NCBI GenBank assembly: GCA_036391685.1
Contig: DASVZK010000033.1
Coordinates: forward strand, 22,701 to 86,700
DNA length: 64,000 nucleotides
Source of the DNA: Ktedonobacterales bacterium
GTDB lineage: Bacteria > Chloroflexota > Ktedonobacteria > Ktedonobacterales > JADMIN01
Direction: 5' to 3'
This document shows positions 5,723 to 61,330 of the stretch, piece by piece (positions within the stretch are counted from its first letter, which is position 1; the number at the start of each line of letters is the position of its first letter). Made by a program: the position numbers and the translations under genes. Under the pieces are notes generated by a model that worked only from the letters and a program-made list of their open reading frames with translations, made no database searches and was not told where the DNA came from.

Positions 5723-5964
5723 GTGACCGAGCGCGGGACTTGCGCGCGAATCAGGGCGACGAGATCGTTGAGGATGAGAAGTTCGTCGAGTTGCCGCTTG
5801 TCCTCTATGCTCAAGGTTCCGTCATCTTCTTTGTCGAGCAGGCGCTCGATCAGTTTCTGTGCGCCTTTGGAGAGATGAAAGCGCGCGATGTCCTCGGGGG
5901 AAGGGCCTCGTGCGAAAAACGTCGCCACTTCCTCTACTGGACTCACTGTGGATGCATGACTCAT
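5719..5964 (-). CDS. small hypothetical protein coupled to the HNH gene
   Basis: The ORF runs up to 6012. The ATG at 5964 follows GGAGG. It is translationally coupled to the HNH gene by a 4-nt overlap. No family recognised. Confidence 0.5.
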   Translation of the reverse strand: MSHASTVSPVEEVATFFARGPSPEDIARFHLSKGAQKLIERLLDKEDDGTLSIEDKRQLDELLILNDLVALIRAQVPRSVT

Positions 5965-6023
5965 GGTCTGTTTGGCGCCTCCATCGTCATATGAGCGTCC
6001 TACCAGCATCATAGCACAGCCGT

Positions 6024-9556: not shown

Positions 9557-9558
9557 GG

Positions 9559-11910: not shown

Positions 11911-13484
11911 AGCGGCAACACTTTCACTAGGCGCTCGCGCAGGCGGATGGTCTCGGCGAACGCGTTCAGCTGGTTCTTGAAGCGGCTACTGTAGGGGTTC
12001 TGGGCTTCGGGAACGGCGATGGGTTCGCGCGCCACCGTGAACGCGGTTTCCGGCATCGCCAGCGCCGCGTCGTTGAGCGTGGTATCCCATGGGTCGGTGG
12101 CGCGCGCCTTGGTGTCAGTGACGACCGCGAAGGCGCGCAGGCCGTCGAGGTAAGCCTGGGCCACGGCGACGCTCCACGGGCGCGGCAAGAGGTCCAGCGC
12201 CGCCCGAAGACCCATATCCGCGTATGTGTCAGGCGCGGCGAGCACCCGCAGGACGAATGCGTCCAATGTGGCGGGCGGCAGCAGCGGCGCGAGCGGTCGG
12301 CAATAGCTGGCGCGGTCCGCGTCCATCTGCGCAATCTCTTTGTCAGGCATTGCGAGCAGGGCGTCCCATAGGGCGAGCGCCCAGTCGCGAGCCTGAAAGC
12401 TGGTTGTCGCGGTACTCCAGCTTTCCAGGATGCTGGCGCGCCATTTCGATGCGGCGCTGGCGGCGATAAGCGCGGCGGGCGCCACGCCAAAGCGCTCTGT
12501 CCAGTGCGCTGGCGGTACGCGCTCAAGGAGCGCCGCCAGCCAGAACGCGCGCTGGCCATTCTTGTTCGAGATGGATTGGGTAGGCAGACCGTCGCGCGCC
12601 CAGCTGCCGTCTATCGCGGCGGGTGGGTCGGCGTCGAGCGCCGCGCCATCGAAGGTGATGGCGGCGTTGGCGCGGTCGCGGAGACGCAGCGCCAGCGCCG
12701 ATGCCGGAAGATCGGTGAGCAGGCGCGCGGCGACGGCGCGCACGCGCTCGCCACGGTCGTCTAGCGCTGCCTCTAACAGCGGCTCATCGTCGGGCGCGAG
12801 ACCGGTGGCGAAGGTTTCGAGCATGCTGGCGCGGGTCTCAGCCTTCTCCTTCTTCCAGACGCCCTCGAGCCAATCGCGCGCCAGCGCCGGGTCTTGAGTG
12901 CGCAGGCGACCCAGCAGCGCGATCCGCTGCCTTGTCGTTCCCTCCTGCCAGATGGTCTCGGCGTCGGGCGGCAGGGCATCGCGCACGCCGGGCAGCGTGC
13001 GCTCCAGCAGCCACGACCATTCGGGATTGTGGCTCGCCAGCCAGCGTCCGCGCTCTCCCGCCAGCGGCCCCAGCGCGGCGCGCAGCTCGTTGGTGGCGAA
13101 GGCGCGCGCCTTCTTGAGGGTGAGTGGCAGCAGCGTGGGTGGCAGCAACTCGCCGCGCCGCTCCATCCGCGCGCAGGCTTCCAGCAGCAGGTCGTCGCGC
13201 CCGGTGACGACGAGGCCTTCGATCAGCGCGGCGGCGTCGGGCGGGCAGATTGGGCGCTCCTCCGTCTTCGCGGCTTCCAGCGGCGCGACGCCACGCGCGG
13301 GCAGGCGTCCCGCCGCGTGGTAGATGGCGGATTCAGCCGCGCGCAGCAGCAGATCTCGCCCCGCGTCCTCGCCCGGCAGCGGAATGCCATCGACTGGCGC
13401 GCCGGTGGTGGGAGATGCGTTTGGGCTGTGCGCCAGACCGGCCAGCGCCTGCGCGGTCAGCGAATTGGGGCGGGTCGCCGTCAT
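11907..13484 (-). CDS. uncharacterised helical protein (DUF5691-like; name recalled, not verified)
   Basis: The ORF extends to 13727, but the ATG at 13484 forms an ATGA overlap with the SWIM gene stop. 525 aa, Leu/Ala-rich and predicted helical. Its stop overlaps the AAA+ start by 4 nt. Confidence 0.65.
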   Translation of the reverse strand: MTATRPNSLTAQALAGLAHSPNASPTTGAPVDGIPLPGEDAGRDLLLRAAESAIYHAAGRLPARGVAPLEAAKTEERPICPPDAAALIEGLVVTGRDDLLLEACARMERRGELLPPTLLPLTLKKARAFATNELRAALGPLAGERGRWLASHNPEWSWLLERTLPGVRDALPPDAETIWQEGTTRQRIALLGRLRTQDPALARDWLEGVWKKEKAETRASMLETFATGLAPDDEPLLEAALDDRGERVRAVAARLLTDLPASALALRLRDRANAAITFDGAALDADPPAAIDGSWARDGLPTQSISNKNGQRAFWLAALLERVPPAHWTERFGVAPAALIAASAASKWRASILESWSTATTSFQARDWALALWDALLAMPDKEIAQMDADRASYCRPLAPLLPPATLDAFVLRVLAAPDTYADMGLRAALDLLPRPWSVAVAQAYLDGLRAFAVVTDTKARATDPWDTTLNDAALAMPETAFTVAREPIAVPEAQNPYSSRFKNQLNAFAETIRLRERLVKVLPL

Positions 13485-14878
13485 GCGCGCGCCTCCGTCA
13501 GCGGGGTATATGTCCCGACGGCGATGACGCCTAGCGGCAGCAGCGTCTCGCCATTCCACTCCACCATCACATCTACCGGCTGGCCCCCAGAGACGGCCAG
13601 CAGCCGCCAATGCTCGCGCGCGACCAGCGGCAGCGCGTCGCCATCGGCGTCTAGCAGCCGCCAGTCGCCCTCCGGCGTCAGCGTCGGCGTCACTCCGCGC
13701 AACACGCCGCCCAGGCGCCCAAGCCATGGATCACACGCCAACCCTCCGGCATAGGCCTGAAGAAGCCCTTCGACCCGCGTGTAACTTGCCGGGTCCCAGT
13801 TCGCGAAGGCGGGCTTCGCGGCCGCCGGGCCCGTAGCCGCGGATTTATCCGCCTGGCCGGACGTGACGATTTTGGCGCGCAGAGGGTATGCGCCGGGCCA
13901 GTAGCGCAGGTCGGCGGTCAGGCTAGAGCCAGGGAGATAGACCTCAGCGAAGGTCCCGAAGGAGGGCGAGTACTGCATGATGACGGCGGGACGCTGGCTG
14001 CGCTCGCCCAGCAGCCATGTGCGCTGGACATGGATGCGCTCGCTGTCGTCCACCCACTGCCCCAGGACCAGCCAGCCGTCGCTGACCAGTTCTCCGCGCG
14101 CGTCTACCTCCTCGGCGCTCAGCGCCCATCCGGCCACCTGGCGCACCGTCTCGCGCAGCGCCGGACTGAGCGAGTCCAGACACCTCCAGGCCTGAGAGAG
14201 CAGGGCAAGCTTGCCAAGCTCGGCCAGCAACCGTTCTGGCCAGTCCGCTGCGGAGCCGGGGATGCCTGCCATGCGGCGCAGGCGGTTGGCCGCGCCGGGG
14301 ACCTGCGCGTCCACCATGCGCGCGGCCTGCGCTTCCCAGAAGCTGGCGCCTTTGACCTCCAGCCCGGCGATGCCGTTGCGCATCAGGTCGCTCAGCCAGA
14401 GATCGAGATTGTCGAAGCCGCCCGCCATCAGCCGCTGGCGCTTCTCGATGCGCCTGGACGCGACCTTGTCGGCGGCGGCCCGCGCGGGGGCGTCATCCGT
14501 GGCGTCGGCGGGCTGGACGGGCGTGTCAGTGTTGGGCGCGGCCGCCTTGAGCGCGGCCTTGGCGGCGCGCTTGGTCAGCCAGCCGCTCATCCACTCTGGC
14601 GGCTGCGTGGTGGGAACAGTGTCATCGGCGGCGAGAAGGAGCAGGCCGATACCGTGCTTGCAGGGGAATTTGCGACTGGGACAGCTACAGGCGACGGTCA
14701 GGTTGGCGAGATCTATCTTGACCTGATACAGCGCGCTACCCAGGCATTCGCCCCAGAGCCCGGCGTCATCACGTCCCACGCTTTTCCAGTGGCGCGGCGC
14801 GGCCAGCTTGCGGCCCGCCTGCGCGGACGCGGTATCGGGCGTGAGCGCGAGGACCTGCTCAGCGGATATGGCTGGCAT
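13481..14878 (-). CDS. SWIM zinc-finger protein
   Basis: CxCx6CxH signature (ACSCPSRKFPCKHG) near the N-terminus. The ATG at 14878 is preceded by GGAAGGAGA. The track ORF extension to 15085 lacks coding character. Confidence 0.8.
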   Translation of the reverse strand: MPAISAEQVLALTPDTASAQAGRKLAAPRHWKSVGRDDAGLWGECLGSALYQVKIDLANLTVACSCPSRKFPCKHGIGLLLLAADDTVPTTQPPEWMSGWLTKRAAKAALKAAAPNTDTPVQPADATDDAPARAAADKVASRRIEKRQRLMAGGFDNLDLWLSDLMRNGIAGLEVKGASFWEAQAARMVDAQVPGAANRLRRMAGIPGSAADWPERLLAELGKLALLSQAWRCLDSLSPALRETVRQVAGWALSAEEVDARGELVSDGWLVLGQWVDDSERIHVQRTWLLGERSQRPAVIMQYSPSFGTFAEVYLPGSSLTADLRYWPGAYPLRAKIVTSGQADKSAATGPAAAKPAFANWDPASYTRVEGLLQAYAGGLACDPWLGRLGGVLRGVTPTLTPEGDWRLLDADGDALPLVAREHWRLLAVSGGQPVDVMVEWNGETLLPLGVIAVGTYTPLTEARA

Positions 14879-15178
14879 GCGCGGCGTCTCCTTCCACCAG
14901 AGGGGATGGCGCTGTAGAACCGTCGAAATCCTGTTCTCCGCCAGTATGCCGTAGCCGGAACCCCATGTATAGCCCCCATTGCCGGGGCCGCCTGCAAAGG
15001 ATGGCGGAGCGCGAATTGCATGGTCGGTGGTATGCGATACAATAGCGTGATGGGCGCTGGCCCTCACCCCTTGACGCTGTCCCACGGAGAGAGGGGAGTC
15101 AGAGTGGCCAGTACGCCTCGCGTGGCCATGAAGCTGGCCCCGCTGGATAATCCAATCGCCACAGGGAGAAACCCATAC

Positions 15179-33329: not shown

Positions 33330-34802
33330 ATGAACAGGACAACACTACCAATGACCGGTACAACCGCATCATCCCAGCCGATCCTGCTGCGCGGCGCGCG
33401 TGTCGTGGACCCCGCCCGCGCGCTGGATGGCCCGGGCGCCGTGCTGATCGCTGACGGGCGCATCCTCGCCTGTGGCATGGCAGCCAGCAAGGGCGGCCCG
33501 CTTGGCCCCGACGTGACGCGCGCGCTGGCGCGACTGGAGGCCGAGGGGCAGCCCGCGCGCGTGGTGGACCTGCCGTCCGGCTGGGCTATCGCGCCGGGCT
33601 TCGTGGACCTGCACGCGCACCTGCGCGAGCCGGGGTTCGAGGCCAAGGAGACCATCGCCAGTGGCGCGGCGGCGGCGGCGCGCGGCGGCTTCACCACCAT
33701 CTGCGCCATGCCCAACACCAGCCCGGTCACCGATTCGCGCGCTGGCGTCGAATACGTCCTGCGCGCGGCAGAGGGCGCGCCCGCACGGGTACGCGTCATC
33801 GCCGCCATCTCGCAGGGTGAGCGCGGCGAGGAACTCAGCGACATGGGCGAGCTGGCCGCGGCCGGCGCAGTGGCCTTCTCAGACGATGGCCGCCCGGTAT
33901 CCAGCGCAAAAGTCATGCGCCACGCGCTGGAGTATGCCGCGCCGCTGGGTCTGCCCATCGTGGAGCACTGCCAGGACGAGGAACTGGTCGGCGAGGGCGT
34001 GATGCATGAAGGTGCCGCGGCGACGCGCCTGGGCCTCAAGGGCTGGCCAGCCGCTGGCGAGACAGTCATGCTGGCGCGTGACCTGGAACTCGTGCGGACG
34101 AGCGGCGCGCGCTACCATGCCGCGCATCTCAGCGTCGCCGGAGCGGTGGCGCTGGCGCGCGAGGCGAAGCGCGCCGGGCTGCCGGTGACCGCCGAGGTCA
34201 CGCCGCACCACCTGCTGCTGACCGATGACTGGGTGGCGGGCGAGCGTACTGGGCCGCTGGCGGACGCGCTGCGTGAAATGGGCCATGACCTGCCCGCGGG
34301 GCCGCGCTACGACACCGCCGCCAAGGTCAATCCGCCGCTGCGCACGGCCGCCGACTGCGAAGCGCTGCTGACGGGTCTGCTGGATGGGACGATCGACGCC
34401 ATCGCCACCGACCATGCGCCGCATACGCAGGTGGACAAAGACTGCGAGTTCGCCGAGGCGGCGTTTGGCATGAGCGGCTTCGAGACGGCGCTAGCCGCGC
34501 TGCTGGCGCTGGTCCACACCGGCAAGCTGCCGCTCTCCCAACTGATCGCCGCGCTGACTGTGCGCCCCGCCACCGCCTGGGGGCTGGACGCCGGGACGCT
34601 GGAGCCAGGAAAGCCAGCCGATCTGGTCATCTTCGACCCCGATGAGACATGGACGGTGGACCCGGCGCGCTTCGCCTCGCTGGGCAAGAACACCCCGCTG
34701 GCCGGGCTGACGCTGCGCGGACGCGTGCGCCAGACCTGGCTCGGCGGCGCCCTGGTCTACGACGCCGCTTCCGGGCCGGCGGCTGAGGAGACGCAGGTAT
34801 GA
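33330..34802 (+). CDS. pyrC: dihydroorotase
   Basis: DLHAHLREPG (HxH metal ligands) and ATDHAPH motifs. 490 aa. Confidence 0.9.
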   Translation: MNRTTLPMTGTTASSQPILLRGARVVDPARALDGPGAVLIADGRILACGMAASKGGPLGPDVTRALARLEAEGQPARVVDLPSGWAIAPGFVDLHAHLREPGFEAKETIASGAAAAARGGFTTICAMPNTSPVTDSRAGVEYVLRAAEGAPARVRVIAAISQGERGEELSDMGELAAAGAVAFSDDGRPVSSAKVMRHALEYAAPLGLPIVEHCQDEELVGEGVMHEGAAATRLGLKGWPAAGETVMLARDLELVRTSGARYHAAHLSVAGAVALAREAKRAGLPVTAEVTPHHLLLTDDWVAGERTGPLADALREMGHDLPAGPRYDTAAKVNPPLRTAADCEALLTGLLDGTIDAIATDHAPHTQVDKDCEFAEAAFGMSGFETALAALLALVHTGKLPLSQLIAALTVRPATAWGLDAGTLEPGKPADLVIFDPDETWTVDPARFASLGKNTPLAGLTLRGRVRQTWLGGALVYDAASGPAAEETQV

Positions 34803-36025
34803 CCGCCAGCATGGCGCGCGACGAGGCCGGGAAGATGCGTGTGCTGGTGAGGAACAGGAAAGGAGCGAGCGGCGTGGATGAGGCGAGCGAGTTGACCGCC
34901 GCGTTGGTCCTGGAGGACGGCGCCATCTTCACCGGCAAACCGTTTGGCGCGGTGGAGGCGCTGGCGAAGGGGCGCCGCGGCGAGGTGGTCTTCTGCACCG
35001 CGATGACGGGCTATCAGGAGATCTGCACCGATCCCTCCTATCGCGGCCAGATGGTGACGATGACCTACCCCCTCATCGGCAACTATGGCATCGCTGACGA
35101 GGATGTAGAGTCGCGGCGGCCGTGGCTCTCGGCCCTGATCGTGCGCGAGTGGTGCGATGAGTACAGCAACTGGCGCGGCGGCCAGAGCGTGGACGATTAC
35201 CTGCGGCGCTACGGCATCCCTGGCCTGCATGAGGTGGACACCCGCGCGCTGACGCGGCACCTGCGCGAGGCGGGAAGCCTCCGCGGCGTCATCCACACCT
35301 TCGCCGCGGGCCAAACGCCCGATCTGGCCGCGCTGACCGCCGAGGCGCGCACGGTCAAATCGGTCTCGGATATTGATGTCGTCGCCGAGGTTTCGATTGA
35401 TGACCTCGCTCCCTGGGAGACACGGCCCTCCACGCCGGGCGCGCCGCGTGTCCTGCTGGTCGATACCGGCTTCAAGCGCAATATCGCCCGCCAGCTGACC
35501 GCGCATGGCATGGAGGTGGTTGTCGCGCCGCACACCGTCGATATGAGCGTCATTCGCAAGGTGCAGCCTGACGGCGTGCTGCTCTCCAACGGCCCCGGCG
35601 ACCCGGAGCGTGTGGAGGCGCTCATCGCGCTGACCAAGGCGCTGATCTACGAGGAGCGCATCCCGATGATGGGCATCTGCCTGGGCCACCAGATCATTGG
35701 CCTGGCGGCGGGCGCGCAGACCGGGCGGCTGCTCTTCGGTCACCACGGCGCAAACCATCCTGTGCGCGATGTGCGCGACGGCCGCGTGACGGTGACCTCG
35801 CAGAACCACAACTTCCAGGTACTGGCGGAGACGCTGCCAGCGGAGAGCGGCTTCAGTGTCAGCCACATCAATCTGTCGGATGGCAGCGTCGAGGGGTTGG
35901 CGCATGAGTCGCTGCCGGTCTTCTCGGTGCAATACCACCCTGAGGCGGCGCCCGGCCCGGAGGACAACCACTTCCTGTTCACCCAGTTCCGCGCGCTGAT
36001 GACCGGCGCGGAGGCGCGGCCCTAG
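34799..36025 (+). CDS. carA: carbamoyl-phosphate synthase small (glutaminase) subunit
   Basis: ATGA overlap with the pyrC stop. Catalytic Cys in MGICLGHQI and C-terminal YHPEA. The N-terminal ~30 aa are unusual, so a later start (ATG at 34835) is possible. Confidence 0.9.
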   Translation: MTASMARDEAGKMRVLVRNRKGASGVDEASELTAALVLEDGAIFTGKPFGAVEALAKGRRGEVVFCTAMTGYQEICTDPSYRGQMVTMTYPLIGNYGIADEDVESRRPWLSALIVREWCDEYSNWRGGQSVDDYLRRYGIPGLHEVDTRALTRHLREAGSLRGVIHTFAAGQTPDLAALTAEARTVKSVSDIDVVAEVSIDDLAPWETRPSTPGAPRVLLVDTGFKRNIARQLTAHGMEVVVAPHTVDMSVIRKVQPDGVLLSNGPGDPERVEALIALTKALIYEERIPMMGICLGHQIIGLAAGAQTGRLLFGHHGANHPVRDVRDGRVTVTSQNHNFQVLAETLPAESGFSVSHINLSDGSVEGLAHESLPVFSVQYHPEAAPGPEDNHFLFTQFRALMTGAEARP

Positions 36026-36538
36026 ATGGGCGGCGTCTACGCCATCGCCCGTGTGGACGCGGCGGATTCGGCCAGCCTGGCGGCGTTCGTCGCGGTCCAC
36101 GAAGAAGCGGCGGCGTGGCTCTGGGCGCGCGGGATCGAGCAGTGGCGGCCGGGCGAGTGTACCCTGGCGACGCTGCGGCGCGAGCGCGCGGAGGGCCCCG
36201 AAGTGTATGTCGCGCGGCGCGACGGCGCGGTGGCGGGCGGTTTCACACTCCAGTGGGACGACCCGGAGAACTGGGAGGAGCAGCCGCCAGTCGCTGGCTA
36301 CCTCCACGCGCTGTGCGTGCGCCGCGCCGACGCCGGCCACGGCCTGGGCGCGATGATGCTGGACTTCGCCGGGCGGCGTGTCGCGAAGATGGGGCGCCCC
36401 TGGCTGCGACTCGACTGCTGGAAGGGAAACGCCACGTTGCGCGCCTACTACGAAGGCCTGGGTTTCAGGTATCAGGGCATCGGCGATCACGGCTGGGCGG
36501 CGCTCTACCAGCGGTCATCTATGAGCTTTCAGGAGTAA
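36026..36538 (+). CDS. GNAT-family N-acetyltransferase
   Basis: 170 aa. Acetyl-CoA-binding pattern LCVRRADAGHGLGAMML. The ATG immediately follows the carA stop, and carB starts 6 nt after its own stop. Confidence 0.75.
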   Translation: MGGVYAIARVDAADSASLAAFVAVHEEAAAWLWARGIEQWRPGECTLATLRRERAEGPEVYVARRDGAVAGGFTLQWDDPENWEEQPPVAGYLHALCVRRADAGHGLGAMMLDFAGRRVAKMGRPWLRLDCWKGNATLRAYYEGLGFRYQGIGDHGWAALYQRSSMSFQE

Positions 36539-36544: not shown

Positions 36545-39500
36545 ATGACGCGCGACGATATCCACAGTGTGCTGGTCATCGGCTCCGGGCCGATCATCAT
36601 CGGGCAGGCGGCGGAGTTCGACTACGCCGGCGCCCAGGCCTGCCGCGCGCTGCGTGAAGAGGGCAAGCGCGTCATCCTGGTCAACTCCAACCCGGCGACG
36701 ATCATGACTGATGAGGGCGTGGCCGATGTTACCTACATCGAGCCGCTGACCGTCGCTTCGGTGCGGCGCATCATCAAGGCGGAGCGCCCCGATGGCCTGC
36801 TGGCGACGCTCGGCGGCCAGACCGGGCTCAACCTGGCCGTCGCGCTCGCGGAAGACGGCGCGCTGGACCAGTACAAGGTCAAGTTGCTCGGCACCCCGCT
36901 CCAGACCATCAAACAGGCGGAGGACCGTGAACTCTTCAAGCAACTGCTGCTGAGCCTGGGGCTGGGGGTGCCGCCGAGCAAGACCGTGACGACCGTCGCG
37001 GACGCGCTGGCGTTCAGTGACGCCGAGATCGGCCTGCCCGCCGTCATCCGCCCGGCCTTCACGCTGGGCGGCTCCGGCGGCGGCATCGCGCGCACCCGCG
37101 CCGAACTGGCGACCATCGCGCAGCGCGGCATCGACGCCAGCCCCATCCACCAGATCCTCGTTGAGCAGTACCTCGGCGGCTGGAAAGAGATCGAGTACGA
37201 GGTCATCCGCGACTCAGCCGGAGCCTGCGTCACCGTCTGCAACATGGAGAACTTCGACCCGCTGGGCGTCCATACCGGCGATAGCATCGTCGTCGCCCCC
37301 AGCCAGACGCTCTCCGACCGCGAGTACCAGATGCTGCGTACCGCCTCGGTGCGGATCATCTCGGCGCTGGGCGTCGAGGGTGGCTGCAATATCCAGTTCG
37401 CGCTGGACCCGCGCTCCTTCCGCTACTTCGTCATCGAGGTCAACCCGCGCGTCAGCCGCTCCTCGGCGCTCGCCTCCAAAGCCACTGGCTACCCCATCGC
37501 GCGCGTCGCCACCAAGATCGCCATCGGCAAGCGGCTGGATGAGATCACCAACGAGATCACCGGCAAGACCGTCGCCGCCTTCGAGCCTGCCCTGGATTAC
37601 GTCGTCGTCAAGATACCGCGCTGGCCGTTCGACAAGTTCCCGCTGGCCGACCGCGGCCTGGGCACGCAGATGAAGGCCACCGGCGAGGTCATGGCCATAG
37701 ACCGCACCTTCGAGGCGGCGCTGCAGAAAGCCATGCGCGCGCTGGAGGTCCGCGCCGACACGCTTAACGCCAACCCCGGCGACGTGGACGACCTGGGCGA
37801 GTTCCCGCCCAACGATGTGCGCCTCTGGCGACTGCTCGACTCGCTGCGCGTGGATACCGCCGATGGCGCGATCCAGACGCTCCACGACCAGACCGGCATC
37901 GATGTCTGGTTCCTCGCCAAACTGCGCCGCATCATCAGGATGGAGCAGCGGCTCGCCCGGCAGGAACTGACGCCGGAGTTGCTGCGCGAGGCCAAGCGCA
38001 TGGGCTTTTCCGACGCGCAGATCGCGGTGGCGCAGGCGCAGCGGCCCGGCGCGACCGAGACAACGGCGAAGGCGGTCTACGAGCTCCGCCGCGCGCTGGG
38101 CATCCTGCCGACGTTCAAGATGGTGGACACCTGCGCCGCCGAGTTCGCCGCGCGCACCCCCTACTTCTACGCCACCTATGAGCAGGAGAACGAGGCTCCG
38201 GCGCTTGAGGGCGCGAAGGCGGTCGTTCTCGGCTCCGGCCCCATCCGCATCGGCCAGGGCATCGAATTCGACTACTGCTCCGTGCGCGCCTCGCAGGCGC
38301 TGCGCGACGCCGGGATGCGCAGCGTGATGATCAACTCCAACCCCGAAACCGTCTCCACCGACTTCGACATGTCCGACCGGCTCTACTTCGAGCCACTGGA
38401 CGCCGAATCCGTCATCGCCATCCTCGACAACGAGGCGGGCGCGGGCGCGAAGCCGTCGGTGGTGACGCAGTTCGGCGGGCAGACGGCTATCGGCCTCGCC
38501 GCCCCGCTGTACGCCGCCGGCGCGCCCATCCTGGGCACGTCAGTGGATAGCATAGACCTGGCCGAGGACCGCCGCCGCTTCGATGACCTGATGGAGCGGC
38601 TGGGCGTGCCACGACCGCAGGGCGCGGCGGTGACGAGCGTCGCGGAGGCCGAGCGTGTGGCGGCCGAGATCGGCTACCCGGTGCTCGTGCGCCCATCTTA
38701 CGTCCTCGGCGGGCGGGCGATGGAGATCATCAGGGCGCCCGAGGCGCTCACGCGCTACGTGACCCGCGTCATCTCGCAGTTCGGTGAGCACCCCATCCTG
38801 ATCGACCGCTACCTGACCGGGCGCGAGATCGAGGTGGACGCCATCAGCGACGGCGAGTCCGTCCTGATCCCCGGTGTGATGGAACACATCGAGCGCGCGG
38901 GCGTGCATTCCGGCGATAGCTTCGCCGTCTATCCAACGCGCAGCCTCTCTGAGGACGAAATCCGCGCCGTCGCCCGCCACACAACCAACATCGCGCGGGC
39001 GCTGAAGGTCAAGGGACTGATCAACGCGCAGTTCGTCGTCACCGAGCCCAATGGCGAGCCAGGGTCCAACGTCTGGATCCTGGAGGTCAACCCGCGCGCC
39101 TCACGCACCGTCCCATTCCTCTCCAAAGTCACGGGTGTGCCGATGGCGCCGCTGGCGACGCGCGCGGCGATGGGCGAGTCACTGGCGGCGCTGGACGGCG
39201 GGAAGTGGGTCGGGCATCCCGACAACCTGTGGCCGGTCCAGCCGCTCTTCGCCGTCAAGGGCCCGGTCTTCTCGATGTCCAAACTGGTGGGGGCGGAACT
39301 GGCGCTGGGGCCGGAGATGAAGTCCACCGGCGAGGTAATGGGCATCGACAAGACCTATCCCGCCGCGCTGCGCAAGGCGCTGATCGCCGCGGGCGTCACC
39401 GCGCCCGACCGCGACGGCGCGGCCTTCGTCAGCGTCGCCGACCGCGACAAGGCGGAGGCGCTGCCGATCCTCCAGGCGCTGGGCGCGGCGGGGTACACCT

Positions 39501-39826
39501 TCTACGCCACCGGTGGCACCGCGAAGATGCTCACCGACGCCGGGCTCACCGCGGCGGAGGTCGCGCGCATCAGCGACGAGGACGATACCATCCTCACCCT
39601 CATCCGCACGCGCACCGTCCAACTGGTGATCAACACCATCACTGGCGGCTCGGGTCGCGCGCGCGCCGGCATCGAGATCCTCGACGGCTTCAAGATCCGC
39701 CGCGCCGCCGTCGAGGCCAACATCCCCTGCCTCACCTCGCTTGACACCGCCCGCGCCCTGGTCGAAGCGATGCGCGCGGGCGACGAGGCGCTCTGCCTGC
39801 CGTTTGTGGCGTACCGGGAAGGATAG
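36545..39826 (+). CDS. carB: carbamoyl-phosphate synthase large subunit
   Basis: 1093 aa. Duplicated ATP-grasp halves ([21 protein letters not shown] and [20 protein letters not shown]) and a C-terminal MGS-like domain. Confidence 0.95.
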
Positions 39827-39841
39827 TCGCTGCCCTGATGT

Positions 39842-40393
39842 CTACGCCTGAGGCGTCGCATAGGCCAGCGAGCAGACAGCAATCGTCCATTCCGGCAGGG
39901 AGACGCCATAGAAGATCCAGCCTGCGGCGACCTGGCCATGCTTCCATTGCCAGAAATTGTTCGCCTGTGTGCCGCAGCCACCGGCGTTATCTACCGTTGG
40001 GTTCCAGCGAGTCCAGCCTGCCCGCTGAAAGCCTGCGTTCAGCGATGCGACCAGAGCAGCCTGAGTGGTGTTAGGCGTGCATTCTATGTAGTAGGTCGCG
40101 CCGGCCGCGCCTCCACCGATGTTATACGAAACGGTGTTAGGTGGCACAGGCATGGTCAGATTGATGGAGTCGCCATTAATGGAAGGGCAACCTCCTACGG
40201 GCGTATTCGTGGCGGCTGGTATGGTAGTCGGCGCCGCGGTTGACGTGGCTATGACGGTAACAGTCGAGGATGCGTTTACGCCGCCTGTGTCGCCAGGGCG
40301 GCACGCGCTCGCGAACAGGGCCACGAGGCAGCATAGCGTTGCGGCGGCGGTGAACCGGAGGGCGGCCCCACGCGCGTAGCGCGGATACAGCAT
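39842..40393 (-). CDS. secreted lipoprotein-like hypothetical protein
   Basis: 183 aa. Signal peptide with a lipobox-like LFASAC and a Thr/Ala-rich linker. It lies inside the cassette between carB and the first carB remnant. Confidence 0.55.
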   Translation of the reverse strand: MLYPRYARGAALRFTAAATLCCLVALFASACRPGDTGGVNASSTVTVIATSTAAPTTIPAATNTPVGGCPSINGDSINLTMPVPPNTVSYNIGGGAAGATYYIECTPNTTQAALVASLNAGFQRAGWTRWNPTVDNAGGCGTQANNFWQWKHGQVAAGWIFYGVSLPEWTIAVCSLAYATPQA

Positions 40394-40406
40394 GCGAACG
40401 TGCCTC

Positions 40407-40661
40407 CTACTGGCGCTTGATTACTACGATCTTGTTCATCTCGCCACAACTGGAGTATGGGCGCTTGTTGGTCGCGATGAAGTTGATGTAGCAATTGTAC
40501 TGCGATCCCGAAGCCCGGACGTTAATCACCACAACCGGCGACTGATGCGGCGGCATGGCGCAAGACGCCCATTGGCTCGGCGCTAAATGGACTTTCGCTC
40601 TCGGATCGTGGCTAATTACGGCTATCCACTGCGCTTGCATCGCGGCGGCGTGCCTCTTCAA
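40407..40661 (-). CDS. possible small protein (weak call)
   Basis: 84-aa ORF in a locally AT-richer stretch that ends 13 nt before the 40393 start. Its N-terminal part overlaps the carB remnant region, so a shorter product from an internal Met is equally possible. Confidence 0.3.
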   Translation of the reverse strand: MKRHAAAMQAQWIAVISHDPRAKVHLAPSQWASCAMPPHQSPVVVINVRASGSQYNCYINFIATNKRPYSSCGEMNKIVVIKRQ

Positions 40662-40685
40662 GCTGCTCGATCCGCTTGCGCGCCG

Positions 40686-40752
40686 ATCGAAGCGCTGCGC
40701 GCGGAGGATGAGGCGCTCTGCCTGCCCTTCGTGGCGTATCGCGGGGGGATAG
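40686..40752 (+). pseudogene. displaced carB 3'-end remnant (copy 2)
   Basis: Encodes [21 protein letters not shown] followed by TAG, versus car[22 protein letters not shown]. The nucleotide alignment to 39761-39826 is roughly four-fifths identical by eye. Weaker similarity continues upstream to about 40640. Confidence 0.75.
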
Positions 40753-41423
40753 AAGAGCGATATACGCCGACACTACGCGGACATCCGCGCGGGCTGGCGC
40801 CAATCACCGCAGGCGAAGGACCGTATGCTAATCTGCGGATTGAAAACGCTTGACACGTGTGCTACGTTATCACATGGCGCTCGCGTTCACCCGCAATTCC
40901 CCGCGCCACGCGACCTCTTGTCCCGTTCGGCGTTCCCCTCAGCGCGCGAACATGACATCACGCGCTCAGGCCACGCGCTGAACCGCGCCTCCCATATCGC
41001 GACTCCCTGAACTCTCGCGACCCCTCGCGACCCCTTCGCTTCATCTGATGGATTATGCCTGTCATTTCGAGTTTGCGCGTCCTTTCGCCCCGTGACGCCT
41101 GGAGGACCGTGACGGAGCCTGCGGATGACAGCGCGATCGAATGTGTGGATGTGGATAATCAACCGCCAATGGACGTGGTGGCCGTCATTGCCAACGGACT
41201 GGCCTGAAACAACCCCGTGTAGGCGGCATTTTGGCGGATCGAGTGGCGCGCGTGTTTGCGCCGCTGCTCTCGGTGGTAAGCGCGTACAAGCGCCAAATTA
41301 CGACGTTCCACAGGGGGAAATGCTCTGGCGCTGGAGTCGGGCGCGCCCGGCTTCCTGACAGACTGTGGGCCGTGGGACTGTGTCGTTACCCAATGGCCCA
41401 ACGATGGATGGAGGGTACATCGT

Positions 41424-43589
41424 TTGTTCCGTATGACTCTGTGGCCGCCTTCGGGGCGGCAGCGAACATCCTGGATCGCAACCTCGCTCGCGCTGGTATT
41501 GGCCCTGACCGTGATTCCAAGCGCGTTTGCGTCGACCACAGGGAACCTCGGTGGGAACATCATCGAAATTGACGGAACCCAGATCGCTGGCGCGGCGGCT
41601 GGGCTGGGCATGGGCGCCAACCTATACCCCGATGGGTACACGGGCGCGCCCTATAGCTCGAGCAATCCAGCGCCCACCAGCCCGCACCTGAACGCCAACG
41701 CGAATATTGACTGGGTCAAGTCTTCCACCGGCAACATCGGAACTAACTGCCTCAACGTGACCGACTTCGCTACTTGCGACCAGGCTGGAGTGACCGCTTC
41801 TACGAACGGCGCTGGCGACTGGAATGGCCTGCGCATCGTTGATGGCATTGGGAACAACGACCAAGACATCTTCACCAAGGGTGGCAAGGAGAACGATACC
41901 TCGACCTGGACTGTCGGGCCAGGCTCCGTTGGATCGGCGAAGTACGATATTACGCAGGCGTACATCGCCAACACCGCTACCAGCAACACGAGTGGCTACC
42001 TCTTCTTCGGCATGGAGCGGCGCGGCAACGACGGCACCACCGCGTTCGACTTCGAGTTCAACGCGAAGGCGCCCGCCGCGGGCAGCAGATATGTGCCTAC
42101 CCGCACAGTCGGTGATGTGTTGTTCACCTTCGAGATGCAAGGCTCCGGGTCCAGTGGCTCGGCGGTACCGCATGTCTTCACCTGGAACGGCAGCGCGTAC
42201 ATCGAGCAGACCAACCTGGCAGCCGGCGAAGTGGTCACCTCGATCAACAACGCCCCAACGCCGGGCGCGCCATGGGGCTTCGTCAACAGCAAGGGAAACT
42301 GGACCGACTCCTCGGCGACGAGCGCGAGCGGCATGCTTCCGAACTTCGAGTTCGCTGAGGCCGCCGTCAAGATCGGTGCCGGTGGCGTCGCCTTACCTGG
42401 TGTGGGCGCCTGCGGTGGCGTCGCGTACTCTGAGGTGCGCACCCGCTCCTCGGCGACCGATACCAGCGACCTGAAGGACACGACGAAGATCTTCCCGTTC
42501 AACTTCGGATCGCCGACCGCGGCCGCGACGCTGGCGGCGCTCTGCCCGCCGACTCAGGGCTCCGCCCCGCAATTCAGCTACGACGGGCGCGCCTCGACCG
42601 ATTCGTCGGGTAACACCAACTCCTCCAACCTGTCCTACAGTTGGAACATCTCAGTGGCGCCCACTTCTGTGACTCTCTCGGGAGGCGGCGTCGCGGGGAC
42701 AGCTACCGCTGGCCAGTACACCTCGACCGCCTCCAATGGCACGGTGGATGTCATCTTCCCGGCAGACACCACCGTGACGCAGGCGAGTGTCACGGTCAAG
42801 AACACGGTGTCTGAGAATGGGGCCTGTTCGAACTCCACAGGCAATCTCACGGTGACGGTCTATCGCGGGCTCGGCGCCACGGCGACGCTCGCGCCCACCT
42901 GTGGATTCGGCGTTTCCTATAGTTCGAGCGTCTCGGGAGGGTTGGCGCCATACACCTACTCCTGGGCGTTCTATAAAGTCGGCGCGGGTACGGGCGGCTC
43001 TGACCTGCAGGTGGGGACGAGCACTTCCGCATCGGGCACGTTCGACGCGACCTCGAGCGGCGCGGGCAGCTACTATGGCAAGCTCACGGTGACTGATAGC
43101 GCCGACACGACGAACTATGGCGCCGGGGTCACTGGCAAGGGCTCCTGTACGTTCAATGTGACGTCGAGTACGATCCAGGTATTTGGACCGCTGAATCCGA
43201 CCGCGAGTAAGTCCGGTCAGGACGGTACCGCGCTGACCGTGACAGGCAGCGGCGGCGCCAACGCCGCGACCTTGCTCCAGTGGCAGTACCAGGACAGCAG
43301 CGGTAACTGGCACAACATCGGAACCGCCGACACCAGCACGACTGCCTCACTGACGAACGCGACGGCGCTGACGCTGGGTGAATTGAATTTCCGCGGCTCC
43401 TCAAGCATCGCGAAGTCGCAGACCAGCTCGACGGCTACCATTGGCTCATCGTCGTATGTGGGTCAGTTGTATACCATCGTGTTGCGCCTGCATGCGGAGC
43501 GCTCCGCTTCCGCCGGCGGCACGACGAGCGATTGTACGGCCGATTCGTCGCCCGTTACCCTGACCCTCTTCATTGGTGTTGATCCGTAG
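41424..43589 (+). CDS. large secreted surface protein with Ig/PKD-like repeats
   Basis: 721 aa. Signal peptide (SLALVLALTVIPSAFAS), Thr/Ser/Gly-rich beta-type composition, and repeated ~90-aa segments in the C-terminal half. Confidence 0.7.
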   Translation: MFRMTLWPPSGRQRTSWIATSLALVLALTVIPSAFASTTGNLGGNIIEIDGTQIAGAAAGLGMGANLYPDGYTGAPYSSSNPAPTSPHLNANANIDWVKSSTGNIGTNCLNVTDFATCDQAGVTASTNGAGDWNGLRIVDGIGNNDQDIFTKGGKENDTSTWTVGPGSVGSAKYDITQAYIANTATSNTSGYLFFGMERRGNDGTTAFDFEFNAKAPAAGSRYVPTRTVGDVLFTFEMQGSGSSGSAVPHVFTWNGSAYIEQTNLAAGEVVTSINNAPTPGAPWGFVNSKGNWTDSSATSASGMLPNFEFAEAAVKIGAGGVALPGVGACGGVAYSEVRTRSSATDTSDLKDTTKIFPFNFGSPTAAATLAALCPPTQGSAPQFSYDGRASTDSSGNTNSSNLSYSWNISVAPTSVTLSGGGVAGTATAGQYTSTASNGTVDVIFPADTTVTQASVTVKNTVSENGACSNSTGNLTVTVYRGLGATATLAPTCGFGVSYSSSVSGGLAPYTYSWAFYKVGAGTGGSDLQVGTSTSASGTFDATSSGAGSYYGKLTVTDSADTTNYGAGVTGKGSCTFNVTSSTIQVFGPLNPTASKSGQDGTALTVTGSGGANAATLLQWQYQDSSGNWHNIGTADTSTTASLTNATALTLGELNFRGSSSIAKSQTSSTATIGSSSYVGQLYTIVLRLHAERSASAGGTTSDCTADSSPVTLTLFIGVDP

Positions 43590-43693
43590 GAGTTGATTCC
43601 GCAAGGGTTCGCGTCTGGACCCGTGGGCGCGCTGGACTCTCCCATCTGGCGCGCCCGATGGCGCCCGGCGCGAACGGCATTGTGGATACAAAC

Positions 43694-43729
43694 TGAGGGG
43701 AAACTGGCGCTTGCGCCAGTTTCCCCTCA
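43694..43729. terminator. perfect 17-bp hairpin between convergent genes
   Basis: tgaggggaaactggcgc tt gcgccagtttcccctca. There is no clear U-tract on either side, so terminator function is inferred from position only. Confidence 0.5.
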
Positions 43730-43736
43730 CATATCT

Positions 43737-43871
43737 CTGCGAGAGCGACACATCCTCAATGGAGTCGTCGCCGGAGACCCCACGCCCAATCGCGGCGGCG
43801 CGGCCTTCGTCAGCTTCGTCCGCCGCGACAACACTCCGCCGCTCTTCGTGGCGTATACCGCGGGGAAGGGA
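43737..43871 (+). pseudogene. decayed carB-like fragment (copy 3)
   Basis: An 18-nt exact match ggcgcggccttcgtcagc (43797-43814 versus carB 39416-39433) sits inside a longer similar stretch (LRERHILNGVVAGDPTPNRGGAAFVSFVRRDN versus [28 protein letters not shown]). It is followed by cttcgtggcgtat, identical to 40727-40739 (PLFVAYTAGKG versus LPFVAYREG). Confidence 0.55.
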
Positions 43872-43909
43872 CTCGCGAGGACGTATACGGACAGCGGTGT
43901 CCCAACGAT

Positions 43910-44827
43910 TCACACACGCTGGCCGATGGCGATGTGAACTGGCATGTTGCAGCGGTACTGGCGGGAGTCAATGTCGCGCAGCGCCTGAGTCAGCGTCTGG
44001 TCAAACTGTGTCTCCGTCGCCAGGCCCTGCGCCACGATCACGCCGCGCACCGCCTGGACGCCCGCGAAATAGTCCGTCATCATCATCTTGCCGACGCGCC
44101 CGCCCCAGGAGCCACACGGAATCTCGATGGTACGCGTCGCGATGGCGCTCAGGCCCGCATCGCGCAGCAACCCGGCGACGCGCGTCGCGTCCTCGATCTC
44201 CACATTACGCCGCAGGCTGATGGCGCGGATCCAGTCCATTAGCTGCTCCGCCTGCGGGCCGCCCGCGGTAGGCAGGGTTGGCTCGACGGACTCGATCCAC
44301 CCGCCAGGCGCGGTGACACGCGCCAGCTCATGGATGACCAGCGGCCAGCGGTCGTGCAGGATCGCGCTCACCAGCAGGCGCATATGGGTAAAGTCGAAGC
44401 TTTGATCGGGGAAGGGCAAACCCTCCAGGACATTGCCAGCGTAAAAGGCATAGTTGGGTGGCGCTGGCTCAGTCAGGGCGCTGGGCGAGACATCGGCGGG
44501 CGGCTGATTGATATCGAGGCCAACAACTCGCGCCTGTGGGAAGTTCTGCGCCATCTCGCGCGCCCAGCGGCCGGTGCCTGTGCCGACGTCCAGGATGCTG
44601 CGCGGGTAGGCGATTGGCGCGGCGTAGTTGCCTCGCAGCGCCGCGCGAAAGAGGTAGTGCTGGAAGTCCAGCCGGTTCATTTCCTCCAGGTCGCGCGGCA
44701 GATTATAGGGAACCCCCCGCGCCCTGACGCGCCCGGCGATCATGCCGCTGGGCGCGTCGACGCCACTACCAAAATCTCCGGCGCGCTCAGCGGACCGCCG
44801 CCGGAAAAGCCTGCTCAACCATCCCAT
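43910..44827 (-). CDS. class I SAM-dependent methyltransferase
   Basis: Motif I ILDVGTGTGRWA, followed by VVGLDI. 305 aa. Confidence 0.8.
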   Translation of the reverse strand: MGWLSRLFRRRSAERAGDFGSGVDAPSGMIAGRVRARGVPYNLPRDLEEMNRLDFQHYLFRAALRGNYAAPIAYPRSILDVGTGTGRWAREMAQNFPQARVVGLDINQPPADVSPSALTEPAPPNYAFYAGNVLEGLPFPDQSFDFTHMRLLVSAILHDRWPLVIHELARVTAPGGWIESVEPTLPTAGGPQAEQLMDWIRAISLRRNVEIEDATRVAGLLRDAGLSAIATRTIEIPCGSWGGRVGKMMMTDYFAGVQAVRGVIVAQGLATETQFDQTLTQALRDIDSRQYRCNMPVHIAIGQRV

Positions 44828-45302
44828 GTCGCCCTCCTGCGCTCCCAGGCGGTTTCACGCGTTTCACGTGAAAGGCGCCACGTCCAGTGTGGTGAAGGAT
44901 GTGGGCTAGCGCGCTCCTTGCCACGCTTGCGATGCGATCCTGCGCTCAAGCCCGCCAAGCCCCACAAGCCCCACGCGCGCATCCTCATGCGCACGTCGTC
45001 ACGCGTCTCAGCGCGCTTTACTCTGCCCTTGCTATCCTACCAAATGCGGTCAAGCGCGAACACTTGCTGGCGCGCCCTCTGGCAGTTGCGCGGGCGCCAG
45101 TCCCATTTCGCTGCTTTACCTGAATTTAACAGCGGCCCCTAACCGGGAGGCGAGCGAGCGCGTAGAAAGAGCGTGCCGCGTGACGGCGAGCGGCGCCGCC
45201 GCGAGGACGGTTGGTGGTCGCCGGCGCCGTCTATGTCTGCTCGCGGAGTGGACTGAGATGAGGCGGGAAGCCAAGCGCCTCACCCAGACGAGAGGGAGCC
45301 TT

Positions 45303-46241
45303 ATGGGGGAATACGAGAGCGCCATCGTCGTGGAAGACCTGCGCAAGTCCTACGGCGCCACCAGAGCGGTGGACGGTGTCAGCTTCAGTGTCCAGCAGGG
45401 CGAGGTCTTTGGCATGCTGGGGCCGAACGGCGCCGGCAAATCAACGACCATCGAGATCGTTGAGGGGCTGCGCACGGCTGATGCGGGCAGCGTAAGTGTG
45501 CTTGGGCTGAAACAGCCGCGCGCCGCGCGGGCCATCAAGTCGCGCATTGGCATCCAGTTGCAGACCACCTCGCTCTACCCGCGCCTGACCGTCACCGAGA
45601 TCCTCGACCTCTTCCACACGTTCTATCCTCACCGCAAGTCGCTGCCCACCGCCGAGTTGATCCGCATGGTGGATTTGGGCGAAAAGGCGCGCACCCGTAG
45701 CAAGCAGCTTTCTGGCGGGCAGAAACAGCGGCTGAGTGTCGCCCTGGCGTTGGTGAACGATCCAGACATCGTGTTCCTTGACGAGCCGACGACCGGCATG
45801 GATCCACAAGCCCGCCGCCAGTTGTGGGATGTCGTTCTCGACCTCAAGCGCCAGGGCAAGACCGTATTGATGACCACGCACTATATGGAAGAAGCCGAGC
45901 AGATCTGTGACCGTGTGGCGATTGTGGACCACGGCCATATCATCGAGATCGGCGCGCCGGGAGAGTTGGTGCGCCGCCACTTCAGCGATATCGCTATCTC
46001 GTTCCAGGCGTCCGGCAAAGGGGTGGAGAATCTCGATGACTATCAGGCGCTCGCGGGCGCCCTGCATGTCATGCGTGAAGATGGCCGGGTGACGGTCTAT
46101 ACCAGCGACGCGCCGCGCACGATGTCCGCGCTGCTGGAACGTGAGTCCGCGAATGGCGCGGCGCTGCGCGATCTGAACGTGCACAGCGCGACGCTGGAAG
46201 ATGTCTTTCTCAAGCTGACCGGTCGCGCGCTGCGTGAGTAG
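45303..46241 (+). CDS. ABC transporter ATP-binding protein
   Basis: Walker A GPNGAGKST, signature LSGGQKQRL, Walker B IVFLDEPT. The ATG at 45303 is preceded by GAGGGAG. Confidence 0.9.
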   Translation: MGEYESAIVVEDLRKSYGATRAVDGVSFSVQQGEVFGMLGPNGAGKSTTIEIVEGLRTADAGSVSVLGLKQPRAARAIKSRIGIQLQTTSLYPRLTVTEILDLFHTFYPHRKSLPTAELIRMVDLGEKARTRSKQLSGGQKQRLSVALALVNDPDIVFLDEPTTGMDPQARRQLWDVVLDLKRQGKTVLMTTHYMEEAEQICDRVAIVDHGHIIEIGAPGELVRRHFSDIAISFQASGKGVENLDDYQALAGALHVMREDGRVTVYTSDAPRTMSALLERESANGAALRDLNVHSATLEDVFLKLTGRALRE

Positions 46242-60011: not shown

Positions 60012-60890
60012 GTGATCATTACCCATCGAGAACTGGCTATCTTCCTCTTATTCGGTCAATTCCTTGATTTGCTTGGTGGACTATACGTAGCAACAGATAT
60101 CCTCGGCGGCAAGCAGGGTGTGCTCCGGCGATTGACTGAGTTATTTACGTATATCGTTCCAACCACCATAGTGACACTGTTCGGATACCTTTCCATCTTT
60201 CTCGCGCTCTATGCTACTGAACCAAAGCTAGTCGCCGCATTTGGCCGCGATACTGCTCTCGCCGGATCCGTTGGTCTAGGTGTTGGGGCTGGCATCGGTT
60301 ACGGGCTGGGATTCGCTCTCAATATTCGCTATCGCAATCATTATGTCGCTCGATCCATACGCCGGCGCGTCATCTATGCTGTCTTGGTAGGTATCGAGTC
60401 TGGAGGATTCGGTTGCCTGCTGTATGGTTGTATTCGACTAGCTCCCAGCTTCTCGTTCACAATCGCCTCTGCGTTTCTGCTTGCCGCCGCCCTCAATTTC
60501 ATCGGCGGCTACCTTTTTTCCGCCTTCGTCGCTCGCCTGCTGATCCGACGAATAAAAGACCCCGATCCTACCAGACGACCAGATATTCAATCCATTGATG
60601 TTATCGTTGGTATGATATGCGGCCTCGTCATTGGCCTGGTCGTTGGACTAGGGTCATTCTTTATCTTCGAGCCTGACCCGGTCTCGGCGATATTCTCGGG
60701 TCTGACTGGTTCAATCCTGTCTTCGCTCGGTCTGGGGGTGTTTGTAGCTGGCGCTCCAATCATCGCATGGCGGGTCAATCTAATCACTTCGAAACGGTTC
60801 GCCTACGCCGGAATCATCCTTATCCTTGTGGCGTTCGCTATCCAGTCCGCGCAATACGTTGTCGTATTGCTGAATTACCCAATCAATTGA
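60012..60890 (+). CDS. polytopic membrane protein, hypothetical
   Basis: 292 aa with ~8 hydrophobic segments. GTG start preceded by GGAGGGG. Confidence 0.6.
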   Translation: MIITHRELAIFLLFGQFLDLLGGLYVATDILGGKQGVLRRLTELFTYIVPTTIVTLFGYLSIFLALYATEPKLVAAFGRDTALAGSVGLGVGAGIGYGLGFALNIRYRNHYVARSIRRRVIYAVLVGIESGGFGCLLYGCIRLAPSFSFTIASAFLLAAALNFIGGYLFSAFVARLLIRRIKDPDPTRRPDIQSIDVIVGMICGLVIGLVVGLGSFFIFEPDPVSAIFSGLTGSILSSLGLGVFVAGAPIIAWRVNLITSKRFAYAGIILILVAFAIQSAQYVVVLLNYPIN

Positions 60891-60898
60891 GGTTCACG

Positions 60899-61330
60899 AT
60901 GGCACGAACGTCGATCCGTCCTCCGGCCGAACTACAATCCGCTACAGTGCTGCTGACTGCGGCCACCCTTTACTGGAATATGGCTCACGGCATGGAGGAA
61001 CTCCGCTATGGCTTCCAACTGAATTTCGGACTCTCGCCAACGTGGCTTGGACTGTTTTTCTGTCTTGGCTATCTCGGAGAAGTTATCACGTTGCTTATGC
61101 TTGCGACTCGGCCAATGCTCGGGTGCTATCTCGCGCTCGTCGTCAACGCACTGATCGCCATTACAAGCTCGCATCACGTTTTCGATATCCTATTCGCGTG
61201 GCCATATCGCGAAGGAATCATCTCCAAAGCCATCGAGGCGGCACTCATCATTTCTGCCTACCTCTCCATTCCCATCACCATCTGGGCGATTGCAGTCGCT
61301 CGCCGCGCGCAGAAACAGAGTCCGTTTTGA
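60899..61330 (+). CDS. small 4-TM membrane protein, hypothetical
   Basis: The ATG at 60899 is preceded by GAGG. 143 aa with four hydrophobic segments. Confidence 0.55.
   Translation: MARTSIRPPAELQSATVLLTAATLYWNMAHGMEELRYGFQLNFGLSPTWLGLFFCLGYLGEVITLLMLATRPMLGCYLALVVNALIAITSSHHVFDILFAWPYREGIISKAIEAALIISAYLSIPITIWAIAVARRAQKQSPF

Follow-up and report, generated by a model that had tools for sequence, protein, structure and literature searches.

Why should the end of an intact housekeeping gene be found again, twice, in the few kilobases downstream of it? The question is raised by carB, the gene for the large subunit of carbamoyl-phosphate synthase, in a 64,000-nucleotide stretch of DNA from a Ktedonobacterales bacterium (GenBank assembly GCA_036391685.1, contig DASVZK010000033.1, positions 22,701 to 86,700). 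This whole stretch is the window of our analysis (G000:C33:22701-86700), and coordinates refer to it unless a contig or locus is named. G000, the genome that holds it on contig C33, is a metagenome-assembled genome (MAG) of 4.67 Mb in 88 contigs, 85.5% complete and with 6.7% contamination, and every genome compared with it is likewise a MAG. An earlier note, made from the sequence alone, had proposed that the two downstream pieces are old carB ends left behind by cassettes stacking at one insertion hotspot. Our comparisons support the hotspot, and the explanation we favour for it is insertion guided by homology to the carB end.

Displaced carB ends in the window

The target gene, carB (36545-39826, plus strand), encodes an intact protein of 1093 amino acids with the Pfam domains CPSase_L_D2, D1 and D3 and, at its C-terminus, an MGS domain (Pfam, residues 972-1064). 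When carB was compared by BLASTN with the 6 kb downstream of it, its functional terminus, the last 80 nt including the TAG stop codon (39747-39826, plus strand), recurred at 40672-40752 as the earlier note had claimed, collinear and on the same strand, with 67 of 82 positions identical (82%, E 3e-13). This displaced copy, which corresponds to the final ~80 nt of carB, is called remnant 1 below. It had been described as keeping both the reading frame and the stop codon. The frame is indeed kept up to the last three codons and the TAG stands at the aligned position, but one extra G places it +1 out of the carB frame, in which remnant 1 reads ...YRGGIEE.

A second carB-like piece, older and more decayed, was delimited at 43765-43871 (remnant 2, plus strand) by BLASTN, gapped alignment and translation. 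Its first part, 43765-43831, matches carB 39384-39450 at 56 of 68 positions (82%, E 5e-11), again collinear and on the same strand, and corresponds to the start of the MGS domain (...GAAFVSFVRRDN); the longest exact run within it is 19 nt, not the 18 nt given previously. The tail, 43835-43869, aligns with the carB terminus (TTCGTGGCGTA, CGGGGAAGG) with a score that 8 of 2000 shuffles reached. In one frame remnant 2 translates as ...GAAFVSFVRRDN...LFVAY..., the LFVAY part being the match to the carB terminus. The two remnants also have the 13-nt run cttcgtggcgtat in common (40727-40739 and 43843-43855), as had been noticed before. Because the gapped alignment continues into the decayed carB terminus, remnant 2 is a carB 3' fragment whose upstream edge once lay 442 nt or more before the stop codon and which has since lost ~350 nt internally. 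No further significant carB match was present in the 6 kb downstream, where all other BLASTN matches had E values of 0.003 or more.

The order of the locus is carB, a lipoprotein cassette, remnant 1, a cassette with the gene of a 721-residue protein, remnant 2 and a conserved flank. Base composition follows this order: carB has a GC content of 0.686 and the remnants are carB-like at 0.71 (0.716 in remnant 1), whereas the cassettes lie at 0.61-0.63. Cassette 1 (39827-40671, minus strand, 845 nt), at 0.606, is thus locally AT-richer than carB, as had been stated. According to the list of open reading frames (ORFs) and their translations, it holds the gene of a predicted lipoprotein of 183 amino acids with a signal peptide ending in ...FASAC (39842-40393, minus strand) and a small ORF of 84 codons (40407-40661, minus strand). 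Cassette 2 (40753-43764, plus strand, 3.0 kb, GC 0.626) opens with a 670-nt leader without a convincing ORF, followed by the gene of the 721-residue secreted protein (41424-43589, plus strand) and a hairpin with a 16-bp stem (43694-43729). Pfam and PHROG scans of the cargo matched no family to the lipoprotein, the 84-codon ORF or the 721-residue protein, and gave no toxin, immunity or endonuclease family in the carB cassettes of the window. The 721-residue protein had no homologue at E <= 1e-10 in 40 related genomes, and no Rfam family matched window positions 39000-45000.

The right flank (43910-46241, Pfam) consists of a gene for a SAM-dependent methyltransferase (43910-44827, minus strand) and one for an ABC-transporter ATPase (45180-46241, plus strand). 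The latter is the conserved right flank common to G000 and its relative G009, as judged by tblastn and blastn synteny. Upstream of carB lies carA (34799-36025, Pfam). A GNAT acetyltransferase gene (36026-36538) sits between the two, 3 to 6 nt from either.

Related genomes and other gene ends

The 3' kilobase of carB was searched against the 40 related genomes, and the carB locus was looked at in eight MAGs of the same genus (G001-G007 and G009). In seven of the eight (G001, G002, G003, G005, G006, G007 and G009) the carB end is present in one to three additional copies, which lie 0.7-4 kb downstream of the gene; the number reaches three in G001 and probably also in G006. G004 has lost a copy that its relatives retain between XRE and AbiE genes. 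One carB-end remnant is present in a genome of another genus, G018. The more distant family members G019, G022 and L153, a metagenome contig, have no carB remnant, and no same-genus genome with a wholly empty carB site was found. A metagenome scan with the CarB C-terminus matched L153 only, a family-level relative with 70% amino acid identity; the junction between remnant 1 and cassette 2 had no match in the metagenome scan, and the exact CarB product of G000 has no match on record.

The cargo between the carB copies is mostly unrelated from one genome to the next. In the relatives it includes BRO-N and P22-antirepressor-like (P22_AR_N) proteins, an AbiEii/AbiEi pair, a Clp_N protein, secreted proteins and a small XRE-type regulator. 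Single-gene cassettes cluster at about 0.67-0.85 kb, and others measure 3-4 kb. One to three remnants with differing cargo in seven of eight genomes support the view, already put forward in the earlier note, that the site after carB is a recurrent insertion hotspot, here across the genus. The remnants are 82-98% identical to the carB of their own genome, to which they are closest, with recent repeats in G006 at 97-98%; they always lie on the same strand, are collinear and represent the stop-codon end. This, and the recurrence of the 3' part only, bears out their description as displaced carB 3' ends.

Two details of the cargo are of particular use. One junction, at which the XRE stop codon is fused to a carB fragment, is retained by the XRE cassettes of G006, of G007 and of G002, where it occurs twice and with different cargo. 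In G009 the same slot after carB holds a lipoprotein gene whose product is only 51% identical to that of G000, against 85-92% in the flanks, and a divergence of this kind would fit allele exchange through flanking homology. One G002 cassette (locus L038, G002:C13:61500-78000) carries a gene for TnpB (IS605 OrfB/Cas12f-like; L038 8073-9227), the only transposon-related gene met in any cassette. The functional carB of G002 (L038 ~1450-1659) is apparently frameshifted in its last ~60 codons and its frame runs ~110 nt beyond the usual stop, through either a sequencing error or a real lesion.

The order of stacking can be read from two of the relatives. Downstream of carB, G003 has the native terminator hairpin, then a BRO gene and then a single remnant. 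This BRO cassette (84% nucleotide identity) and its remnant recur in G001, where a Clp_N cassette and a remnant of 209 nt, which has kept the native stop codon and terminator hairpin at its end, lie between them and carB. With one cassette in G003 and the same cassette behind a newer one in G001, the comparison supports stacking at the functional carB end, where new cassettes enter and shift the older ones downstream. The distal remnant of G009 is followed by the same native terminator hairpin, and beyond the second BRO gene of G009, G003 and G001 no third-level remnant could be detected. The 209-nt remnant of G001 (L037, which is G001:C103; 2519-2678 and 4325-4375) has itself been interrupted by a 1.65-kb insertion with four small ORFs. 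Where its two halves would join, ~7 nt are missing, and the insertion shows no new duplication.

The earlier note had suggested looking across the genome for other genes followed by displaced copies of their own ends. We took 2297 crude gene ends of G000 and sought the last 150 nt of each within 8 kb. About nine loci have an orphan copy of the gene's own 3' end downstream; orphan upstream copies were absent from the same scan, in which every upstream match was a tandem paralogue pair. The locus of a CoxE-like gene for a VWA protein (5187-6105, minus strand) had been said to have the layout of the carB cassettes, and it does: the gene end (6040-6105) is repeated at 5187-5252 with 64 of 66 positions identical (97%). 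Between the copies lie a gene for a predicted HNH endonuclease (5288-5722, minus strand, Pfam) and an ORF of 97 codons (5719-6012, minus strand). Five relatives (G001, G006 and G010-G012) have empty sites, a single gene end without the cassette, with native termini such as ...GEGV*, and G009 has the cassette at the syntenic site, flanked by copies of at least ~140 nt. Both G000 copies share G000-specific variants, which points to gene conversion between them or to re-insertion, and repeat identity is therefore unreliable for dating events. HNH-cassette homologues at L138 and L139 have no clear flanking repeat. Relative to G000, a ~9-kb deletion (window about 6172-15175) has removed the entire MoxR-VWA operon from G009 but spared the final ~140 nt of the VWA gene, the cassette with the 97-codon ORF and the HNH gene, and the second VWA end (locus L143, G009:C6:261000-275000; 6343-7538).

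Seven further loci share this layout. At six of them the second copy lies 0.7-2.6 kb downstream, with cargo of low third-position GC content between. They are C38 (29905-30074 and 32202-32371; ~170 nt, 84%; two unannotated ORFs of 308 and 255 amino acids), C49 (54955-55012 and 56498-56555; 58 nt; a TPR membrane protein), C56 (36141-36178 and 37404-37441; 38 nt; cargo without annotation), C57 (10643-10697 and 9896-9950; 55 nt; an Imm5-like protein), C62 (7163-7226 and 8055-8118; 64 nt, 98%; cargo without annotation) and C88a (C88:5947-6026 and 3290-3369; 80 nt, 97.5%; a DUF4062 protein). The distal repeat edge is at the stop codon in C38, C56 and C62, and the repeat runs 26-55 nt past it in C88a and C57. 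The seventh, C88b (C88:86341-89093), is a 2.6-kb islet between 66-nt direct repeats (94%) of the 3' half of a tRNA gene, comprising its T arm, acceptor and CCA. By eye, the islet contains an alpha/beta-hydrolase-like ORF and several small ORFs; it has no integrase.

Two other kinds of repeat were seen in G000. C67:54981-61196 is a 6.1-kb segment with perfect 40-nt direct repeats and a tyrosine recombinase gene (60430-60993) adjoining the right one; on these features it is a classical integrated element, in contrast to the integrase-free cassettes. A palindromic, GC-rich element of ~50 nt, resembling repetitive extragenic palindromes (GGGGCCTCATCCGGCCTTCGGCCACCTTCTCCCTGCGGGGAGAAGGCCC and relatives), is dispersed in intergenic positions, at C32:33790-33840, C32:36682-36733, C67:10432-10480, C67:13392-13438 and C67:13981-14029, and also at L143 6300-6335 and 7610-7640 in G009.

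Possible routes of insertion

Counted from the carB stop codon, the 5' boundaries of the remnants lie at -442, -209, about -143/-137, -131, -127, -116, -114, -90/-79, -74 and -57. With about ten differing positions from -442 to -57, a single common crossover core is not apparent, and by a hand estimate the clustering of three of them within 16 nt does not exceed chance. The other edge behaves differently: in every case the displaced copy ceases to match the proximal one at the carB stop codon or within ~20 nt after it, inside the terminator hairpin, and this 3' edge coincides with the end of conserved coding homology between relatives. The repeats in the window, in the relatives and at the other loci are all at least 38 nt long, mostly 55-170 nt, and these lengths fall within the range of homology that RecA needs. 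No k-mer motif beyond shuffles was found in the repeats at the nine loci.

That the locus lacks an integrase had been noted before, and the same is true of the carB contigs of the eight relatives. A census of tyrosine recombinases (PF00589) gave 11 matches in G000 and 3-13 in each of the relatives, with none on the carB contigs of these nine genomes (G000-G007 and G009). The five serine recombinases of G000 (PF00239) are all on contigs other than C33. Neither an integrase nor a phage structural gene was present in about 18 cassettes from the nine genomes. As to an integron (IntI, attI, attC), the contig has no tyrosine recombinase, the cassette ends have no motif in common, and Rfam gave no match.

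We propose, and would put the probability at roughly 55%, that cassettes are acquired downstream of carB by host homologous recombination, guided by homology and independently of a dedicated recombinase. Small cassettes have entered again and again at the carB stop codon or no more than about 20 nt from it, each event leaving a complete carB end next to the cassette and an older copy beyond it, with the newest insertion nearest carB. The displaced copy, the last ~55 to more than 440 nt of carB, would no longer be selected and would decay. Insertion could follow one of two routes. A circle or fragment with a carB-end segment and cargo could integrate by a single Campbell-type crossover. Alternatively, a donor fragment composed of a carB end and the donor's downstream DNA could undergo homologous recombination within carB and illegitimate joining at its other end, that is, homology-facilitated illegitimate recombination. 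A cassette placed between two repeats could then be exchanged among relatives by ordinary recombination in its flanks.

We favour this model because the repeat edge lies at the end of coding homology, the inner boundaries are many, and neither a recombinase nor a motif was found, and also because the repeats are of a length suited to RecA, the XRE cassettes have a fixed junction and the lipoprotein alleles have diverged deeply in one slot. At the fixed XRE junction the carB fragment behaves as if it were travelling with the cassette, and this, together with the repeat edge at the stop codon, suggests that it may do so. From these comparisons we infer both that homology, not an enzyme, is the targeting agent and that the cassettes are transferred from relatives.

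Several observations weigh against the homology model. The remnants are on average more diverged from the functional ends of sister genomes than the resident end is, and therefore plain duplication of the resident end followed by decay would fit the divergence equally well. The earlier note had held that each insertion supplied a new carB terminus and pushed the old one downstream; the displacement is borne out by G003 and G001, whereas a distance test neither supports nor refutes the supply of a new terminus. Differences between remnants and functional ends are distributed over the three codon positions as 29, 26 and 48, and the modest third-position excess (48 of 103) does not discriminate, because it is also expected after duplication in situ. 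A hand comparison in G001 faintly suggests, from too few sites, that the remnant is a mosaic and the functional terminus atypical. Gene conversion, which the VWA copies appear to have undergone, would blur inferences about age and origin, the XRE argument included. Phage-like cargo (Ant/BRO, XRE and AbiE) in some relatives and the tRNA islet are compatible with integrative elements that have decayed or are mobilised in trans. Because all genomes are MAGs and G000 has the completeness and contamination given above, a trans-acting integrase could have been overlooked. Ku (PF02735) was not found, so circularisation by end joining would be without an obvious enzyme.

The alternative that survives best, a serious rival although we consider it rather unlikely, takes the cassettes to be remains or non-autonomous passengers of site-specific integrative elements (prophages, satellites or islands). 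The carB 3' end would contain the att site, attP would carry a replacement terminus, elements would accrete in tandem, and the integrases would have been lost or would act in trans. A restored gene end with the old end displaced beyond the insert is the classical attL/attR picture, and the relatives carry BRO/P22_AR_N antirepressor-like, XRE repressor-like and AbiE cargo. The XRE cassette family with its fixed carB-fragment junction is also in keeping with such elements, as is the presence in the same genome of both the tRNA-flanked islet without an integrase and the C67 element with one. About ten 5' boundaries would, however, demand many crossover cores, and the repeats at the other loci have no common motif. 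None of the ~18 cassettes has an integrase or phage structural gene, and there is no PF00589 match on the carB contigs. The narrow size range of the single-gene cassettes (0.67-0.85 kb) is also unlike that of random deletion remnants.

Less probable still is a true long target duplication, in which staggered breaks 55-440 nt apart around the carB stop codon would be filled in and foreign DNA ligated between them. Both copies would then be resident, and the cassette would bring no carB DNA. The near-identity of recent repeats (98% in C62, 97.5% in C88a, 97% at VWA and 97-98% in G006) agrees with this, and so do the closeness of the remnants to their own genome's carB, a functional end that is not detectably foreign, and the extension of the C88a and C57 repeats 26-55 nt past the stop codon. 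Such breaks would leave unexplained why practically every carB event, and likewise C38, C56 and C62, has the distal repeat edge at the stop codon (0 to +20), and why related XRE cassettes share a junction; nor is there a Ku homologue for end joining. A carB-like paralogue or an assembly artefact from collapsed or concatenated strain variants we regard as highly improbable: although G000 is a MAG with measurable contamination and G006 has two carB contigs, only the stop-ended 3' terminal part of carB recurs, the pattern is present in eight other MAGs, some of only 20-40 contigs, with decayed copies that carry indels, and orthologous junctions recur across nine independent MAGs. As for a separate paralogous gene, the sole other carB-like similarity is the internal duplication of the N- and C-terminal halves of carB itself (36-38% amino acid identity).

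If insertion is guided by homology, a further idea can be put forward tentatively, namely that the cassettes could be 'addressed' mobile units, free of any enzyme, for which 50-450 nt of a conserved host gene end serve as the homing address. Crossover by the host RecA would insert such a unit at that gene in any relative, regenerating the gene and displacing its old end, and repeated insertion would build an integron-like array without an integrase. Should this be true, addressed units would be a general means of acquiring genes at conserved gene ends such as those of carB, VWA and tRNA genes, one that has largely been overlooked and that would extend across the Ktedonobacterales and to other phyla.

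Most of the accessory genes found in bacterial hotspots come without a recognisable mobility gene, and the route of their arrival is debated. The carB locus offers a natural record in this respect, as the end of an essential gene has been reused across a genus and each event has left a scar. Homology-guided insertion would mean that small cassettes of defence and surface-protein genes spread among relatives by host recombination alone. It would affect the detection of genomic islands, since integrase-based finders miss such cassettes, and the modelling of gene flow in uncultured soil bacteria.

Comparison with known systems

The closest parallel among known systems is insertion with long target duplication, reportedly described by Nobusato et al. 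in 2000. In such cases an insert of a few kilobases without a mobility gene is flanked by direct repeats of the target longer than 30 bp. These frequently overlap with the 3' end of the gene upstream, and in relatives the site is empty and has a single copy (Furuta, Abe & Kobayashi 2010, PMC2853133). The published inserts hold restriction-modification systems, each case being a single event; the mechanism is unknown, and a cycle was proposed in which insertion, amplification mediated by the repeats and release follow one another (PMC2853133). The carB cassettes resemble these insertions in their carB-derived copies (80 nt and at least 107 nt in the window, with copies of 38-209 nt elsewhere), in the empty sites at VWA and the one cassette of G003 against two in G001 at carB, and in inserts without a mobility gene, the TnpB gene of G002 being the one exception. 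They differ in their cargo of lipoproteins, secreted proteins, regulators, AbiE and HNH genes, in the repeat edge at the stop codon, and in that one housekeeping gene end has been struck repeatedly throughout a genus, giving stacks of up to three remnants.

A second parallel is the displacement of C-termini in Rhs/CDI loci, which Jackson et al. are said to have reported in 2009. For Rhs, CDI and type VI secretion system effector-immunity loci, sequential displacement by homology-facilitated illegitimate recombination, without an integrase, has been proposed (Kirchberger et al. 2017, PMC5361080). As in those loci, the constant upstream part of carB is kept, a new 3' end and cargo are added, former 3' ends move downstream together with their neighbours to form an array, and the newest addition is proximal. 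There, however, the exchanged 3' end is itself the payload, a new toxin tip with its immunity gene, whereas the carB ends are equivalent CarB C-termini that do the same job and the payload is an unrelated cassette.

Island accretion at tRNA genes and other gene 3' ends has in common with the carB locus an end regenerated by the insert, an old end left as a partial copy, and the possibility of stacking. Unlike integrase-borne islands, the carB cassettes have no integrase in or near them, have many boundaries and are as small as 0.7 kb. With integron arrays they share small, mostly single-gene cassettes without a recombinase, a single entry point and a newest cassette that is proximal, but there is no IntI, attI or attC-like element and the separators are copies of a host gene end. 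Free-standing homing endonuclease cassettes differ in turn, as the carB cassettes of the window lack an endonuclease and the VWA cassette alone has an HNH gene. Set beside these systems, our finding extends insertion with long target duplication and sequential displacement to a housekeeping gene and to the Chloroflexota, with homology-guided insertion offered as a proposal for the mechanism.

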